A DNA stretch of 8,206 nucleotides from a virus (IMGVR_UViG_2541047896_000001:1-8206), one strand, 5' to 3'; counted from the stretch's first letter, positions 1 through 6,125 are shown. Numbers and translations: made by a program. The notes: generated by a model not told the origin, from the letters alone.

Positions 1-1035
1 TCATCGTATCGCCCCTGAATAAACCGTCACCGTTTCTCCGTCGATTTCACCCGTCATCATCATGCCGTCAAAGCTGAACTGAGAAGCCGGCTCTATACGC
101 AGCCTCCCGGACGTGTCAGCCACGACAACCCACGCCTGACCATCGCGTTTAAGCCGTCCGGCAAGCCGCCATTTGTCCGAGACAACGGGCTTAACTGGCG
201 CAGCAGGAACTGAAACCACAGTGTTATTTCCGGCGGGTAAAACTTTTGTCTGCTGTTCAGGCTCTGAACTACCGTTTGACGTGAAAAACCAGAACAGATA
301 AAAAATGGCAATTACCGCCAGAATCAGTAACCCGGCGGCTTTAAACCACAGCATTTTAGAACTGAAAATATTCTGGCGTTTATCAGTGACAAGCTCCCTT
401 CCCTGCCCGTTCTCATGGGATTTATATAAAGGAAATATCGCCTTGTCATATTTATTCTGATAACTGTTCGTCAGATTCGACTTAAACAGCTTGATGCCCG
501 TAAATACGTCAACCCGGTAACGGTTATGCAGCCCCAGCGCCACATGCTTACTCATGCGATACGTGGTTTCCACCCGGTCTTTGATGAATCGCGGAAGGTT
601 GGCAACAGACTGATTCATAACCACTAAATCGCAGGTCACGCCTGTCTTTTCATCAGCGAAATGACGATGTTCTGCAATGAAAGAGCGATGATTTGTGGGG
701 ATTCCTTTATCGCTCTCCCATATGCGCCATGCTTCATCAATACAGATTAAATCCCCCGGACGGCAGAACGTATCATCCGCAATGCCTGAATCCGTTTTGT
801 AGGGAAAGAAATTATCGTTCTGAACGTCTTCATTCTGAACAAGTAAAATTTCACCAAGTGATTCCCTGTCTGCCTTTTTAATATCAACGCAGTAATCATA
901 AATACTTTGCGTGGCAAGGCCGTAAATATTACTGACAATGCGACGCCCAGCGATACAGGCGGGAATAATGACGCTTGCCACCACTTCGTAAGATTTACCG
1001 CTTCCGGGAATGCCCACATACGCAGAAATAGCCAT
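1..1035 (-). CDS. Filamentous phage assembly protein pI / zonula occludens toxin (Zot) family ATPase
   Basis: ATG at 1035-1033, TAA at 3-1, 344 aa. N-terminal Walker A GIPGSGKS (aa 8-15) and Walker B-like LICIDEAW (aa 96-103); single hydrophobic segment LLILAVIAIFYLFWFF (about aa 236-251) followed by a C-terminal domain of about 90 aa. This domain layout and the last position in the morphogenesis block match pI/Zot. Confidence 0.85.
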   Translation of the reverse strand: MAISAYVGIPGSGKSYEVVASVIIPACIAGRRIVSNIYGLATQSIYDYCVDIKKADRESLGEILLVQNEDVQNDNFFPYKTDSGIADDTFCRPGDLICIDEAWRIWESDKGIPTNHRSFIAEHRHFADEKTGVTCDLVVMNQSVANLPRFIKDRVETTYRMSKHVALGLHNRYRVDVFTGIKLFKSNLTNSYQNKYDKAIFPLYKSHENGQGRELVTDKRQNIFSSKMLWFKAAGLLILAVIAIFYLFWFFTSNGSSEPEQQTKVLPAGNNTVVSVPAAPVKPVVSDKWRLAGRLKRDGQAWVVVADTSGRLRIEPASQFSFDGMMMTGEIDGETVTVYSGAIR

Positions 1036-1336: not shown

Positions 1337-3220
1337 TCACGCAGTCAGAATGATACGCAGCGAAATAATGCCCCAGATAAGCAGGAATACCGCTTTCAGA
1401 AGTGGCCTGATTTTTTCCAGAAGCTCGCAGTGAGAATCAATGGAATATTTATTGTCCCAGAGTTCGAACGACCATACCGGACACTGAACATCCTTCGATG
1501 AAATAATCAGATTTTTAATGTCCGGCATTAATTCCGTAATTGGCTTTAGAATTTCCTCACCTGTAGGCGGTTTTTCAAGTTCCGGCGCTTTAATGCCGGG
1601 GTCTTCGCCTAAATCAACAGAAGTATCGGTATCTGTGCCTGTACCAGGGTGTACACCTGTATCCGTTCCCGCACCGGGTCTGGCATTAACCCACGACTGA
1701 GGAACGACAACCGGACTATAAAGCAAGCCCTTATCAAGTTTTACGCCAACAGCATTAGCCGCAGCCGTCAGTTCAGCCGCCGTAAAAGGTTTATCAAGCG
1801 GTATCCCCTGATATCCTTCCTGAACAACAGTCTGACCTGCAAGGCCATTAATAAGATTAACCAGCGCAGCCGGGTTTAACTGTTCTTCCGGCTTGAAATC
1901 TATATTATCAATAACCTCGCCATTAATTACCTGAGGTAAAGTTGATGTATCAAATTCTGTATTAAAAAATATCTGGTCTTTAACATCCTGAACATCATTC
2001 GTCGTTTTATACACGGCCTTCTCAGGGTGGCAAATACTTTTCCACTGCGTTTTGGGATTATCAGCCGTACTGCCCGGCGCAGGTACTTTCTCGCTTTTAC
2101 ATAAATCCCATGAATTTTCAAGCGTAACCGTTGTTGTCGCAACAGATAAAACAACAGTTACAATCGATGAATATCCACCAAAATAAGGATTCGGCTTTTC
2201 ATACTGAAAGTCTTTAACGGAAACCGAATAAACCTTAAAATTTCTTGGCATCCTGATATGTAAGTTATTGTCGTCAGAAGCCTCATGATAAGTCACATTG
2301 GAATGAGAATAACCATTAATCGACTTATAAAGCGCAATCATTACCGGATTATCACTGACAAGTACAGCATCGCCCTTTGCATCCCTGATATCAGTCGAAT
2401 AAGGATATTTAGTACCCTTTACTGACACACGATATACATCATTCGGAAATGGCTGGCTTATCGGCGGTGGTGCATCAATATTGTAATAGGTTGGCGCAAT
2501 CTGAACAGGTTTAACCTGCTGATTATAAGGGTTTATCGAATCCTGAATATTCTTCGCAGAAAAGCCAGTAGCATCAGAGGGCAAATAAACAGCAACAGGG
2601 CTTTTAGGTGAAGGTGCAACAGAAGAAGTAACAGTAGCGCCATTGGACAAATTAAGTAAATAAGTTCCATCATCCTGTTTTATTCCACTTGTAATATATT
2701 CAACAGCTTTTGCGCCCTGCTTTAAAGCAAGGTCAGCAACGGAAATAACACCCGCAGCCTGCCCCAACAATCCCCATGTTGTCTGTCCGGCAGCCATCAT
2801 ATTACTGCCAAAACTTGAAATACCCGTAGATATCGAATCGTCAATTGTATGCTTCGCAAGGCCATAAGCAGCCGCGAAAACTGACGTTCCGGTGCAAAGC
2901 TGAGGGTTACCCACTTTCTCGCCACACATGCGGATTGAATCAAAAACGTCAGGACGTTCGCGTATAACCTCCGCAGCGACAGCGATACCCGCGCCCATAC
3001 CGAGAGAACTGGCACCCGTTGCGAACACACGCCCCGCAGATTGAGAAACAACCTGAGCTTCACGGGTTTCAACCATTTGCTGAATTACACGTCCAAATCC
3101 GTCTGCTGTTACTGCATCAGCATGTACACCGGATGAAACCAGTAAGGACAATATAGTAATACCTAACTTTCCAGACCCTGAATGACCGCCCAGGCGCATA
3201 AAAGCCCCCATAAAAAACAC
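1337..3220 (-). CDS. Adsorption / minor coat protein pIII-like (receptor-binding, virion-tip protein)
   Basis: Long ORF, 627 aa from GTG at 3220-3218. In-frame ATGs at 3211-3209 and 3199-3197, the latter preceded by a GGGGG run, are more likely starts. N-terminal signal-peptide-like stretch KLGITILSLLVSSGVHA then DAVTADG; Gly/Thr/Asp-rich linker GAGTDTGVHPGTGTDTDTSVDLGEDPG; C-terminal hydrophobic anchor LLKAVFLLIWGIISLRIILTA. Lies between pVIII and pVI as gene III does. Confidence 0.7.
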   Translation of the reverse strand: MFFMGAFMRLGGHSGSGKLGITILSLLVSSGVHADAVTADGFGRVIQQMVETREAQVVSQSAGRVFATGASSLGMGAGIAVAAEVIRERPDVFDSIRMCGEKVGNPQLCTGTSVFAAAYGLAKHTIDDSISTGISSFGSNMMAAGQTTWGLLGQAAGVISVADLALKQGAKAVEYITSGIKQDDGTYLLNLSNGATVTSSVAPSPKSPVAVYLPSDATGFSAKNIQDSINPYNQQVKPVQIAPTYYNIDAPPPISQPFPNDVYRVSVKGTKYPYSTDIRDAKGDAVLVSDNPVMIALYKSINGYSHSNVTYHEASDDNNLHIRMPRNFKVYSVSVKDFQYEKPNPYFGGYSSIVTVVLSVATTTVTLENSWDLCKSEKVPAPGSTADNPKTQWKSICHPEKAVYKTTNDVQDVKDQIFFNTEFDTSTLPQVINGEVIDNIDFKPEEQLNPAALVNLINGLAGQTVVQEGYQGIPLDKPFTAAELTAAANAVGVKLDKGLLYSPVVVPQSWVNARPGAGTDTGVHPGTGTDTDTSVDLGEDPGIKAPELEKPPTGEEILKPITELMPDIKNLIISSKDVQCPVWSFELWDNKYSIDSHCELLEKIRPLLKAVFLLIWGIISLRIILTA

Positions 3221-3243
3221 ATAAAATCAAAAAGATATTGAGC

Positions 3244-3273
3244 CATAAATATAAAGGGGCTGTTACGCCCCTT
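3244..3273 (-). terminator. Rho-independent terminator/attenuator downstream of the major coat gene
   Basis: On the minus strand directly after the pVIII stop: 7-bp stem AAGGGGC / GCCCCTT (3267-3273 pairing with 3254-3260), 6-nt loop, followed by TATATTTAT (3253-3244). Established knowledge: Ff phages carry a terminator after gene VIII that sets the pVIII:pIII ratio. Confidence 0.55.
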
Positions 3274-3284
3274 ACCTTTATGAA

Positions 3285-3533
3285 TTAAGCGCCACGAACC
3301 ATACGCAAAATCCAGCGGACACCCGCAGAACCTGCATACAGAACAATAAGAGAACCCGCTACCGCCATAATTCCGGTCAGGACGGAACCGAAATTAACGC
3401 TGTTAGTCAGCGGCGTAAGGTCAATACCTTTACCACCAACAACATCACCTTCAGCAGCAAATACAGCAGGTGCAGCAACAGCCAGAGTAAAAGCACCAAT
3501 ACGGGTTAAAACCTGTTTAGTCTTACCAAACAT
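3285..3533 (-). CDS. Major coat protein pVIII precursor
   Basis: 82-aa ORF, ATG at 3533-3531 preceded by AAGGAG on the minus strand. Signal peptide MFGKTKQVLTRIGAFTLAVAAPAVFA, then a mature peptide of about 56 aa with acidic N-terminus (AEGD), hydrophobic core (VLTGIMAVAGSLIVLYAG) and basic C-terminus (VRWILRMVRGA). This is the hallmark pVIII layout. Confidence 0.85.
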   Translation of the reverse strand: MFGKTKQVLTRIGAFTLAVAAPAVFAAEGDVVGGKGIDLTPLTNSVNFGSVLTGIMAVAGSLIVLYAGSAGVRWILRMVRGA

Positions 3534-3544
3534 AAAAACTCCTT

Positions 3545-3814
3545 TTATGCATTTCTTACGTGTTTAAGAATTTCACCTATTCCCTTTGCAAAGAGCCACA
3601 GGAAAAAGGTTGTCGTAAAAGCCAGCCCCCAGAATTGCGCCGCGACTGAATAATCAATATCGGGAACAGGCTTATCCTGAGAAACTACCGAAGACTGTAA
3701 TTTAACAACTTCTGACTTCGGTAATTTCAAAGTGACTTCATCGCATCCGTCAGGGCTGCCAAAGCTCATATTCGGATTGCAATATTTTGTCCTGATGATT
3801 ACCTCATCTGACAT
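3545..3814 (-). CDS. Small membrane-anchored protein of unknown function (gene VII/IX position)
   Basis: 89-aa ORF, ATG at 3814-3812 with AAGG-containing upstream sequence, TAA at 3547-3545. Soluble N-terminal part with two Cys (YCNPNMSFGSPDGCDE) and a C-terminal hydrophobic helix FWGLAFTTTFFLWLFAKGIG. Function inferred only from position. Confidence 0.5.
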   Translation of the reverse strand: MSDEVIIRTKYCNPNMSFGSPDGCDEVTLKLPKSEVVKLQSSVVSQDKPVPDIDYSVAAQFWGLAFTTTFFLWLFAKGIGEILKHVRNA

Positions 3815-3831: not shown

Positions 3832-4122
3832 TCATTCTAATAATTCAAGCAGCATATCAACGTTATACCCTTTAGACTGCTCACCTGTCTGCTTATCAGT
3901 GTATGGGAAACTCCGTTCATAACCAGTAATACGGCAATGTACGTCTGTAATTTCATCACCAATACGGCCTAATGGTTTCTTTGATTTAATACGAATGACA
4001 GGCGGAAAGCTATAAGCATCAGCCGCAGGAGAAACAATTGTTGTATAATAAAAACCGCCACTATTATTAAAGCGTTTAATCTTTCCGGTAACAGTAGTTT
4101 CTAAATTAAGTAAATTACTCAT
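3832..4122 (-). CDS. Candidate ssDNA-binding protein (pV / RstB position)
   Basis: 96-aa ORF, ATG at 4122-4120 preceded by AAGGTG on the minus strand, TGA at 3834-3832. Small, predicted beta-rich protein immediately downstream of rep, where inoviruses encode the ssDNA-binding protein. No motif-level proof of family. Confidence 0.45.
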   Translation of the reverse strand: MSNLLNLETTVTGKIKRFNNSGGFYYTTIVSPAADAYSFPPVIRIKSKKPLGRIGDEITDVHCRITGYERSFPYTDKQTGEQSKGYNVDMLLELLE

Positions 4123-4138
4123 AATAACACCTTATATT

Positions 4139-5254
4139 CTATGCAACTCGTAAATGAGACGGTTTTACATACCACGATGGAATAACACAATCAGAAACTT
4201 TAATCTCTCGCGTTTGCTTGACAACAACAGGAGAGAATTTCGAAACATTACATTTTTGCGCAATGTCAATACCAATCTTGCGGAGTCTTGCTCGATGAAT
4301 ACGCACTTGATTTTTACTTAAATCAAAAATATGACCATGAAACCATTGGATCGCATACATAGCTGTAGTATTAGCTGCCCGTGTAGTTTCAACTATTCCA
4401 CGGGTAATAAGATGTTCACTAATAGTTTCAAAATCCATAGCATTCACCGATAACTTTTCATCAAGAGCCAGAAAATCAGAATGTAACTTATTTAAGACAG
4501 AATAATCAGATAACCCCCAAAAACCTAGAGAGTGCTTTTGAATAAAACGAGACTTCAATTTTTGTTCAAATCTGACTATTCCATTTTCCTTACAATAATC
4601 AATCACACTAACAATATAATTAAACTCTTTTGACTGCTCAGAGAATTTATTTTTTATTTTTAATAAACTATGTAACTCAATCTCATGTGACTTATTATAT
4701 ACAGTCGGATAAATAAGATTAACATTCCCTTTTTTAGACAACCAGTCAACAGATTTACCGTTTGAATGCAACCGTGGGACACTATTCCTATAGGGTTGAG
4801 TCGAAAGCCCTGAAATATAATCATCCTCATTCCCTTTGCCAACAGATTTATTAGATGTTATATGAAGCTCTTTAATTAACGCCCCATCAGTTACCATATG
4901 GGCTTTTTCGGTTTCTTTAGACTGACCGGGCATTAATCGAGTGCATTTTGTGAAAACAGGCAATTTAAGATCAAGAAGGATCTTATTGAAAACCATAACG
5001 CAAGCATCAACAGTAGGTAAGCCAAATAAATTATCAAGCCGCCCCCACCGCGAGGGGTTGCCCGTCATTTTTAGAACAGATCCACGGATAGAGATAGAAA
5101 CGACATCACAGAAAGATCCCCGGTGCTGAAAAGTTGGCTGAGAAAGCGCACTAGCCTCACCACTTTCAAGATGAATACGCTGGTAAGCAACATCCGAGAG
5201 AATAGGAAGTTGAAAGCCGAAATCCTGTTCAATACTTAACCAGTCGAAGAACAT
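4139..5254 (-). CDS. Rolling-circle replication initiation protein (pII / RstA-like)
   Basis: 371-aa ORF, ATG at 5254-5252, TAG at 4141-4139. First gene of the minus-strand operon behind a near-consensus sigma70 promoter. The N-terminal region (VVSISIRGSVLKMTGNPSRWGRLDNLFG) resembles, from memory, the conserved N-terminal block of Ff pII (CVEIKASPAKVLQGHNVFG). Size and position fit RstA/pII. Confidence 0.75.
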   Translation of the reverse strand: MFFDWLSIEQDFGFQLPILSDVAYQRIHLESGEASALSQPTFQHRGSFCDVVSISIRGSVLKMTGNPSRWGRLDNLFGLPTVDACVMVFNKILLDLKLPVFTKCTRLMPGQSKETEKAHMVTDGALIKELHITSNKSVGKGNEDDYISGLSTQPYRNSVPRLHSNGKSVDWLSKKGNVNLIYPTVYNKSHEIELHSLLKIKNKFSEQSKEFNYIVSVIDYCKENGIVRFEQKLKSRFIQKHSLGFWGLSDYSVLNKLHSDFLALDEKLSVNAMDFETISEHLITRGIVETTRAANTTAMYAIQWFHGHIFDLSKNQVRIHRARLRKIGIDIAQKCNVSKFSPVVVKQTREIKVSDCVIPSWYVKPSHLRVA

Positions 5255-5377
5255 AGCGCCCTTTCTTAGATTCTCAGAAATTATTTCATGGTGCTTTTAT
5301 AAGACCTGAGAAACTAAGTGTCAACATTTCTAAGAATTTAGAGATATGATGCAAAGCTAGCAGAATGAGGAAAGAGC
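5255..5377. promoter_or_regulatory. Divergent promoter/operator region between rep (minus) and the small plus-strand ORF
   Basis: Minus-strand promoter for rep: -35 TTGACA (complement of 5319-5324), 17-nt spacer, -10 TATAAA (complement of 5296-5301). Repeated near-palindromic TTCT-N-AGAA motifs: ttcttagat 5264-5272, ttctcagaa 5271-5279, ctgagaa 5306-5312, ttctaagaa 5329-5337. These overlap or flank the promoter and are candidate operators. A possible plus-strand -10 TATGAT lies at 5345-5350. Confidence 0.55.
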
Positions 5378-5566
5378 ATGCCTACAAAGCACATAAACGA
5401 TGTTCAATGGAGAAAAATAGAGAAAGAAACCGTTAGAGCGGTATCAACCCTAGCTGTTCCAGTTAAAGATACCAAAATGCTCGAATGGATAATCGCCAAA
5501 GGGTTAGAGACGATCACAGAAGACGACTACCGCAAGTTCCTGAAGACAGAAAGCAAAAAAAAATAA
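5378..5566 (+). CDS. Small hypothetical protein, candidate phage regulator (RstR-like position)
   Basis: 62-aa ORF, ATG at 5378 with GAGG 7 nt upstream, transcribed divergently from rep as rstR is in CTXphi. Lys-rich C-terminus. No recognisable helix-turn-helix, so the regulator call rests on position only. Confidence 0.5.
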   Translation: MPTKHINDVQWRKIEKETVRAVSTLAVPVKDTKMLEWIIAKGLETITEDDYRKFLKTESKKK

Positions 5567-5758
5567 GCGAGCAGGGAAAAAATACGGGAAACCGTACTAA
5601 AGTTCGGGTGTCACAGAACCCCGAACCGCTTCGCGGCGAAAAAACGAACAACAGCAGAGCTTGCGAAATCGGAATTAAGATAAGCTGGACGTCAAACGAT
5701 TAAACAAAAATACGCCATTATGCAAAGATCAAATGACACACTCTAAAAGGTATAGGTA

Positions 5759-6025
5759 ATGAACAAAGACCAGATAATACAAGTACTTAATGAAACAGAG
5801 AATGACAGCCCCGTAGCAAGAGCAGAATTAGCAAGATTCCTCGTAAAAACAATCTACAATTTTGTAAAAATGGAGAGGCCAGAAGGTGAAGGTCTGGACG
5901 GACGTGATGGCCCAGAAAGGCGCAGCATGGGAAAAATTGTAGATGCGGCAGAAAACCACTACTTTAACATGATAAAAGAAAGCCATGAAAAACAGGGAAT
6001 TGGAAGAAAAAACCCTGAGGAATGA
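5759..6025 (+). CDS. Hypothetical protein, unknown function
   Basis: 88-aa ORF, ATG at 5759 with AAAGG 8 nt upstream, TGA at 6023-6025, immediately followed by the dif-like site and a hairpin with T-run. Charged, Glu/Lys/Arg-rich; no motif recognised. Confidence 0.45.
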   Translation: MNKDQIIQVLNETENDSPVARAELARFLVKTIYNFVKMERPEGEGLDGRDGPERRSMGKIVDAAENHYFNMIKESHEKQGIGRKNPEE

Positions 6026-6031
6026 CGCCCT

Positions 6032-6125
6032 AATGCGCATAATGACGTTATGCTAAAGAGGCCGCTGCGGGATTCTATTTTCGCAGCGGCCTTTTCAACA
6101 TAACGAGTCAAACATTATGCGCACC
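6032..6125. other. Xer-type attachment structure: two inverted dif-like sites separated by a GC-rich hairpin (attP-like / prophage-host junction)
   Basis: Site A, plus strand: 6032-6042 aatgcgcataa (9/11 to the dif XerC arm GGTGCGCATAA), 5-nt spacer, 6048-6058 ttatgctaaag (9/11 to the XerD arm TTATGTTAAAT). Site B, minus strand: complement of 6115-6125 = ggtgcgcataa (11/11), 11-nt spacer, complement of 6093-6103 = ttatgttgaaa (9/11). Perfect 11-bp inverted repeat 6034-6044 / 6113-6123 and 7-bp inverted repeat 6046-6052 / 6099-6105. The dif consensus is recalled from memory. Confidence 0.65.
6060..6095 (+). terminator. Rho-independent terminator-like hairpin at the apex of the attachment structure
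   Basis: 10-bp GC-rich stem GGCCGCTGCG (6060-6069) / CGCAGCGGCC (6082-6091), 12-nt loop, then TTTT (6092-6095), 35 nt downstream of the 88-aa ORF stop. It may serve both as a terminator and as the tip of the folded attP hairpin. Confidence 0.6.

Follow-up and report, generated by a model that had tools for sequence, protein, structure and literature searches.

How does a filamentous phage that has settled in a bacterial chromosome hold its replication gene in check? The question is raised by a gap of 123 bp (positions 5255-5377) which separates the leftward replication gene, rep, from a small rightward gene, orf62, in the window, the whole stretch of 8,206 nucleotides of viral DNA analysed here. 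The gap is crowded with promoter hexamers and short repeats. It is probably the genetic switch of an If1-like prophage of the dif region, in which a repressor of 62 aa on tandem boxes blocks the rep promoter.

The prophage and its surroundings

The minus strand of the window carries a filamentous-phage gene set, and two short open reading frames followed by host DNA lie on the other side of the gap:

1-1035, minus strand: zot/pI
minus strand: gene for a DUF2523 protein
minus strand: gene for a 627-aa pIII-like protein
minus strand: coat protein gene
3832-4122, minus strand: ssb
4139-5254, minus strand: rep, rolling-circle replication initiator of 371 aa, at the head of the leftward phage operon, with ssb, coat and assembly genes after it
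5378-5566, plus strand: orf62, candidate repressor of 62 aa (phrog_5219, function unannotated)
5759-6025, plus strand: ORF of 88 aa (phrog_37184), between orf62 and an attP-like unit
6311-8206: host autotransporter gene, in host DNA beyond the 88-aa ORF

The Rep protein matches the Pfam family G2P_X_C (1.5e-24), with Phage_CRI at the cut-off, and phrog_702, annotated as ‘replication protein’ (2e-104). Its N-terminus, MFFDW, is kept in relatives, and its gene is 73.5% identical in nucleotides to the rep region of phage If1. The features of an inovirus found here are Zot/pI, a pIII-like protein, coat protein, ssb and a G2P-type Rep, along with a location in the host chromosome and dif-like attP arms. 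The phage region is present in 3 of 5426 complete E. coli genomes, and in strain PEC148 it adjoins hipA in the dif region, with the phage end present twice. On the grounds of gene set, If1-like rep, rarity among complete genomes and the hipA/dif location in PEC148, the element is a rare, integrated, If1-like inovirus prophage of the dif region.

Two inverted dif-like sites around a GC-rich stem occupy positions 6026-6130. These are ATGCGCATAATGACGTTATGCTAAAG at 6033-6058 (plus strand) and GGTGCGCATAATGTTTGACTCGTTATGT at 6098-6125 (minus strand), the latter matching E. coli dif at 20 of 28 positions. In single-stranded form the unit is predicted to fold as a single long hairpin with a fork (-31 kcal/mol, z = -7.8), and it has the look of an attP(+) hairpin of the CTXphi kind, for XerCD integration at dif. 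PEC148 contains the entire unit twice, with phage DNA after one copy and host DNA after the other, and seems to carry the prophage in tandem. An integrated prophage with a dif-like attP hairpin beside host dif-region DNA needs a means of silence.

The hipBA toxin-antitoxin genes of PEC148 lie between the prophage end and an autotransporter gene of the ECSE_1600 family (locus L001, 8016-9913). The host of the window seems to be without hipBA at the junction, as the autotransporter ORF begins within about 200 nt of it (window 6112-6310). In If1 itself (locus L002, 7316-8451), similarity to rep reaches about 150 nt upstream of the annotated start of ORF320, in the ‘minor intergenic region’. The If1 annotation probably truncates the gene and is wrong to call it hypothetical.

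Divergent promoters and 8-bp boxes in the gap

The gap contains the elements of two divergent promoters and three groups of boxes, named O1 to O3. From left to right they are:

5259-5265, minus strand: likely rep ribosome-binding site AGAAAGG, read from the sequence, overlapping the edge of box 1a
5263-5271: O1 box 1a, TTCTTAGAT, one mismatch, core TCTTAGA at 5264-5270
5265-5318: inverted repeat with 20-nt arms (5265-5284 and 5299-5318), 80% complementary
5271-5279: O1 box 1b, TTCTCAGAA, no mismatch, one 8-bp period from box 1a; about +11 to +19 in the predicted rep transcript
5289, minus strand: predicted rep transcript start, 7 nt past the -10, placed by promoter geometry alone
5296-5301, minus strand: rep promoter -10 hexamer TATAAA, 17-nt spacer to the -35
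5305-5312: O2 box 2a, CCTGAGAA, core CTGAG at 5306-5310, half-site CTGAGAA at 5306-5312, inside the rep promoter spacer
5313-5320: O2 box 2b, ACTAAGTG, core CTAAG at 5314-5318, 8 bp after box 2a, abutting the -35
5319-5324, minus strand: rep promoter -35 hexamer TTGACA
5321-5326, plus strand: candidate orf62 promoter -35 TCAACA, 4/6, overlapping the leftward -35
5328-5336: O3, TTCTAAGAA, no mismatch, two box periods (16 bp) from box 2b
5336-5343: degenerate box ATTTAGAG, following O3
5345-5350, plus strand: orf62 promoter -10 TATGAT
5367-5371, plus strand: orf62 ribosome-binding site GAGGA, read from the sequence

The leftward promoter, the -10 of which ends 41 nt before the rep ATG, is the sole match with at most one mismatch to TTGACA-N17-TATAAT on both strands of the 8.2-kb window (11/12 consensus positions). 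Shuffled windows held a mean of 0.07 such matches, and 15 of 200 had at least one. A generic promoter scan demands T at the last position of the -10, and it passed over this promoter because that base is A. The lack of the conserved final T is a real weakness of the hexamer. Among 21 relatives aligned upstream of their 62-aa genes, the -35 reads TTGAC[AT] in 21/21, GTCAA (TTGAC on the minus strand) being invariant. A -10 hexamer starting with TA, mostly TAnnnT, lies 17-18 nt from the -35 in 20 of the 21.

The rightward promoter is less clearly defined. Its -35 is weak and poorly conserved in relatives, and the assignment is uncertain, but a -10 (TATGAT, TATAAT or TAGAAT) is found 27-35 nt before the ATG in most of them. 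Since the two -35 hexamers overlap (5319-5324 against 5321-5326), the promoters should compete, and silencing of the rep promoter may thereby free or favour the weak orf62 promoter.

Exact TCTNAGA occurs three times in the 8206 bases, each time inside the 123-bp gap, and 7 of the 12 matches in the window to CTNAGA or TCTNAG fall there (binomial P ~1e-10). When the AT-rich gap itself is resampled by a first-order Markov model, the clustering of boxes has P = 1.5e-4. The comparative evidence given below is far stronger than these single-sequence statistics. The cores stand at 5265 and 5273 in O1 and at 5306, 5314 and 5330 beyond it; O2 and O3 make up one phased array across the -35 region, as the missing register (5322) falls on the -35 hexamer. 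With +1 at about 5289, O2 extends from -16 to -30 and covers the whole rep spacer. O1 runs from about +11 to +26, as far as the rep ribosome-binding site, which it touches. Immediately upstream of the leftward -35 and within the rightward spacer stands O3; relative to the rep promoter it occupies -40 to -46, and relative to that of orf62, -22 to -28.

A preliminary description of this DNA had proposed the same minus-strand promoter, TTGACA and TATAAA with 17 nt between them upstream of rep, and it is confirmed here as the only 11/12 sigma-70 match in the window. The copies of a TTCT-N-AGAA near-palindrome that it placed at 5264-5279, 5306-5312 and 5329-5337 are real, with coordinates about 1 nt off; the CTAAG core at 5314-5318 and the 20-nt inverted repeat had been missed. 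The statement that the repeats overlap the promoter spacer and flank the promoter elements agrees with the sites found, which lie over both spacers and beside the -35.

The inverted arms make O1 and O2 inverted copies of one another which bracket the -10 and the predicted rep start. With arms of 20 nt, the repeat could also be read as a structure in ssDNA or RNA, for instance the hairpin of a minus-strand origin or the leader of an mRNA. This is very unlikely, given that the ssDNA fold does not stand out (-12.5 kcal/mol, z = -1.56; 17 of 200 shuffles did as well) and that the predicted rep transcript starts between the arms. RNAalifold applied to the 21 relatives gave no consensus structure and no covarying pairs, and it is the sequence at the 8-bp period that is conserved, not the pairing. 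A search of the window against Rfam gave no matches.

Recurrence of the boxes and their partner

About 35 close homologues of the 62-aa protein were found. The family is larger, with at least 591 clusters at 90% identity in a profile search and about 136 at 50% in an exhaustive search, and scans of viral and genome collections yielded 41 loci. The genome loci belong to Xenorhabdus, Pseudomonas, Aeromonas, Neptuniibacter, Pseudoalteromonas, Kangiella, Colwellia, Rodentibacter/Haemophilus, Methylobacter and other genera. Most members of the family are on contigs of 5-8 kb, the genome size of an inovirus.

Upstream of the homologues, the layout of the gap recurs in 35 non-redundant relatives, which represent at least 10 genera of Gammaproteobacteria, and the box array and promoter are kept upstream of every small 62-aa homologue examined. 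Alignment of 21 upstream regions shows the boxes that flank the invariant GTCAA to be conserved. The consensus of the 35 non-redundant regions, anchored on GTCAA, is t.ct.agtttctAagAAaTta..tt..g.g...aa.tTAgatTCTtAGAttCTaAatGTCAAgaa..ttag.aaat.ag..T..aat. Box 2a is the most conserved box position (TTCTTAGA) and box 1b the best conserved box, with TTCTAAGAA as its consensus. The position of box 1a is kept in both the alignment and the anchored consensus, and a box-like element (TnAG) is kept at the position of O3.

The enrichment is strong and periodic. The motif TCTAAGAA is present in 21 of 33 upstream windows compared with 0.2% of 1070 control windows, and the density of CTNAG upstream is 7-fold over background. 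Distances from core to core peak at multiples of the box length: 8 bp separates the cores of 22 pairs, 16 bp those of 9 and 24 bp those of 7. A second conserved core spacing, of 33-34 bp, parts O1 from O2. One Pseudomonas locus (L010) has an additional box cluster at 2990-3090, next to a further, partial copy of rep, which suggests tandem or nested prophage copies there too.

The gene divergent from the 62-aa homologue varies from locus to locus, and the boxes stay with the 62-aa gene. The opposite gene encodes an If1-like G2P Rep in some loci, another Phage_CRI Rep in four (L012, L021, L031 and L034), Rep_trans in two (L011 and L015), Phage_GPA in L007 and an exonuclease in L019. No box cluster was found in If1, a non-temperate phage with a homologous Rep and without the 62-aa gene.

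These exchanges bear on the idea that the repeats are iterons or a replication origin recognised by Rep. Repeats directly upstream of rep are placed as iterons are, but the same boxes accompany three unrelated Rep families and are missing from If1 despite its homologous Rep; on both counts a role as iterons is rejected as extremely improbable. Moreover, a different element, a hairpin at 5602-5626, is shared with the major intergenic region of If1 and with a locus that has an If1-like Rep (L017).

That hairpin has the form GTTCGGG-N11-CCCGAAC, and about 40 nt around it (window 5586-5636) are conserved as DNA. The stretch matches the If1 major intergenic region in the opposite orientation (L002, 5061-5085), the Neptuniibacter locus L017 (3206-3230) and some E. 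coli plasmids, and is 92.7% identical over 41 nt to Alteromonas phage phiAFP1. It may serve as an origin or in packaging, and is a separate element from the operator boxes.

The association was also examined in reverse, from the DNA pattern to the gene. A scan of IMG/VR for TCTNAGAWTCTNANNGTCAA gave 77 matches, of which 31 have a gene of the orf62 family 52-69 nt downstream in the same orientation, together with 1-4 extra cores. The other 46 are mostly on long contigs and have 0-1 extra cores, as expected of chance. The lone exception among them has two extra cores, and there the end of the contig cuts the locus.

A group of long homologues (175-313 aa) shares the N-terminus MPTKHIDD and likewise has box-like repeats upstream, with tandem 8-bp arrays of CTTAGAAA comprising three units in L037 and five in L040. 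These loci (L037-L043) come from Erwinia, Pantoea, Cedecea, Rahnella, Enterobacter, Serratia and Salmonella diarizonae. In their proteins the shared N-terminal domain is fused to a C-terminal extension for which Pfam gave no matches. In L040 the array occupies 2890-2935 and the ORF 3001-3618; a tyrosine integrase gene is nearby, and the context held nothing else informative. The long-homologue loci may be a different kind of mobile element which uses the same DNA-binding module. What alone accompanies the boxes throughout is the orf62 family's N-terminal domain.

This has consequences for the binders that had been suggested at the outset, namely the 62-aa protein, the 88-aa protein and host factors such as LexA. 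The first is favoured, as the boxes travel with its gene. The 88-aa ORF occurs only in near-identical relatives and prophages and is ruled out on that ground; it has no match in Pfam or NCBIfam and no family beyond phrog_37184. Co-regulation by LexA is likewise ruled out: there is no LexA box (CTGT-N8-ACAG, up to two mismatches) in 5257-5377, and the counts of such boxes across the window are at chance level.

The boxes could in principle be sites of another host transcription factor or nucleoid protein, leaving the 62-aa protein with some other role, and in keeping with this no DNA-binding domain is recognised in that protein by sequence. The proposal is unlikely, however. Arrays are found only beside genes of the orf62 family, in hosts ranging from Enterobacterales to Methylococcales, and elsewhere in the loci the frequency of boxes is at background level. 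The absence of a LexA box from the gap counts against it as well, and TCTNAGA presumably does not fit the consensus of MetJ, CRP, Fur or IHF.

The 62-aa protein and the proposed switch

The 62-aa protein begins with an invariant MPTKHI. Its invariant residues lie in the N-terminal arm (P2, K4, H5) and in helix 1 (W11, R12, E15, V19, A21, V22), not in a recognition helix. A model built from a 69-sequence alignment (pLDDT 87) shows residues 1-7 as an extended arm, followed by three helices (8-25, 31-45 and 48-60). Among its best 60 structural matches are about 20 ribbon-helix-helix DNA binders, including MazE antitoxins, SvtR, NikR, ArtA, HP0222, ParD, a CopG-family protein, CdbA, TacA, PutA and MatP. 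No match in the Foldseek search of the PDB was significant, and a first, shallower model gave no ribbon-helix-helix matches.

Sequence searches were negative throughout. Pfam, with its ribbon-helix-helix families, gave no match to the window protein or to 18 homologues at E values up to 10; NCBIfam and the PDB sequences gave none to the 62-aa protein, and no helix-turn-helix family (HTH_3 or XRE) was detected in it. On the strength of the model, a ribbon-helix-helix fold is probable but unproven. Such a fold fits the invariant N-terminal reading strand and the short tandem boxes. The MPTKHI terminus is consistent with paired strands in the major groove of an intertwined dimer, the model being of the monomer only. 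UniRef names a few members of the family ‘Repressor’, an unverified label for sequences that are hypothetical at NCBI. No paper on the TCTNAGA box or the 62-aa family was found in the literature.

The 62-aa protein would bind the boxes, probably as one dimer per box with neighbouring dimers in contact. Two sigma-70 promoters stand back to back, and they would serve different programmes, the strong leftward one driving rep and the phage operon and the weaker rightward one driving orf62. The three operators are built of TCTNAGA boxes with an 8-bp period, two in O1 within the first ~30 nt of the rep transcript as predicted, two in O2 filling the rep promoter spacer, and one or two in O3 in the spacer of the orf62 promoter. 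With O2 and O1 occupied, RNA polymerase would have no access to the rep promoter, and rep would be silenced, as would ssb, the coat gene and the assembly genes if these are co-transcribed with it. Occupation of O3 would allow the orf62 product to limit its own synthesis by negative autoregulation. The initial suggestion that the repeats are operators for a phage repressor acting on rep, in the manner of RstR on the rstA promoter, gains support from the conservation of the layout, the swaps of rep, the lack of boxes in If1 and the reverse scan.

The closest known parallel in arrangement is the RstR/ig-2/rstA region of CTXphi, where a small repressor gene is also divergent from the replication gene in an inovirus which integrates at dif. 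There too the operators overlap the rep promoter, and autoregulation by RstR has been reported. Both control regions are compact, at 123 bp here and, in the summary given in PMC4762005, 138 bp with three RstR sites in CTXphi. The proteins differ in kind, RstR being of the Cro/cI helix-turn-helix type whereas the 62-aa protein has no such domain and its model resembles ribbon-helix-helix proteins. CTXphi also uses LexA, for which the gap of the window has no box. Furthermore, RstR and its operators vary between CTX types, whereas the 62-aa protein and its boxes are almost invariant across genera. With the helix-turn-helix test negative and no LexA site, the switch of the window is not a member of the RstR family.

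The promoter logic resembles that of the immI region of phage P22, where Arc and Mnt are small ribbon-helix-helix repressors acting on divergent overlapping promoters, such that repression of one favours the other. Neither has a sequence relationship to the 62-aa protein. The P22 operator is a 21-bp site for two dimers, in contrast to the tandem 8-bp boxes here, and the target of Arc and Mnt is the antirepressor of a tailed phage rather than a rep gene.

The geometry of the boxes is that of MetJ. The met boxes are tandem palindromic boxes of 8 bp, each bound by one ribbon-helix-helix dimer with cooperative contacts between neighbours, and the exact head-to-tail period of 8 bp is the same as that found here (peaks at 8, 16 and 24 bp). 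The MetJ box is AGACGTCT, against TCTNAGA plus one base in the phage. MetJ is a host regulator which needs S-adenosylmethionine, and no homology between it and the 62-aa protein was detected.

Small ribbon-helix-helix repressors also set the level of replication proteins in rolling-circle and other plasmids, as do CopG of pMV158 and omega of pSM19035, the latter reading arrays of direct and inverted 7-bp repeats. The phage switch is like omega in the geometry of its operators and like CopG in its control of a rolling-circle Rep. CopG is co-transcribed with rep, whereas orf62 is divergent from it, and no sequence similarity was found. The N-terminal domain of TraM from the F-like plasmid pED208 (PDB 3omy, 3on0) shares 7-9% sequence identity with the 62-aa protein. 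TraM is a relaxosome accessory protein with a tetramerisation domain, and its DNA motif and spacing differ from those here.

Two cases are known from other filamentous phages. ORF13 of the inovirus PMBT54 has been described as omega-like (PMC10534721); PMBT54 is not among the tblastn matches to the 62-aa family in the phage collection. FpsR of Shewanella phage SW1 is a repressor encoded divergently from rep which shifts the rep promoter in gels (PMC4762005). It is a helix-turn-helix protein of 13 kDa, its 621-bp intergenic region has long overlapping 5′ UTRs, and its own promoter is unbound (PMC4762005). FpsR belongs to a different family from the 62-aa protein, and its intergenic region of 621 bp compares with 123 bp here.

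One finding speaks against a repressor of the usual immunity type. In widely differing phages and hosts the operator and the N-terminal reading head hardly vary, which is unusual for immunity repressors, as these normally diversify. The invariance suggests copy-number control or broad cross-repression, and the protein may serve the former rather than immunity. In that event it would be a homeostatic governor of Rep synthesis and copy number in chronic episomal infection and not a repressor of lysogeny, a possible but doubtful alternative. It would account for the near-invariance in at least 10 genera, for the predominance of contigs of inovirus size in the family, and for a protein without a sensor domain beside a gap without a LexA box. 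A search for an induction signal, be it a LexA site, a protease domain or an antirepressor, found none. On the other side, the copy in the window is in an integrated prophage with a dif-like attP, for which stable silencing is needed, and the gene is divergent from rep, not co-transcribed with it as copG is. The two roles are not mutually exclusive, and a switch which silences rep in the prophage is still the probable function of the gap.

Few filamentous-phage switches have been worked out, those met here being RstR of CTXphi, Pf4r of Pf4 and FpsR of SW1. Comparison defines a different and widespread one, made up of an unannotated candidate repressor family, an 8-bp box, a three-operator layout and two promoters. 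Box and family together offer a way to annotate hundreds of inovirus genomes. The phrog_5219 family and its operator, found with three unrelated replication initiators in at least 10 gammaproteobacterial genera, may equally well be or not be a portable cassette, in which ribbon-helix-helix-like proteins on MetJ-style 8-bp boxes are exchanged among filamentous phages. If so, the near-invariant reading head and operator would mean that these phages answer to one another's repressor. The result would be a network of cross-immunity or copy control spanning hosts, unlike the diversifying immunity of CTXphi or the lambdoid phages. The near-invariance of the operator across replication modules thus raises the question of whether unrelated inoviruses cross-repress.
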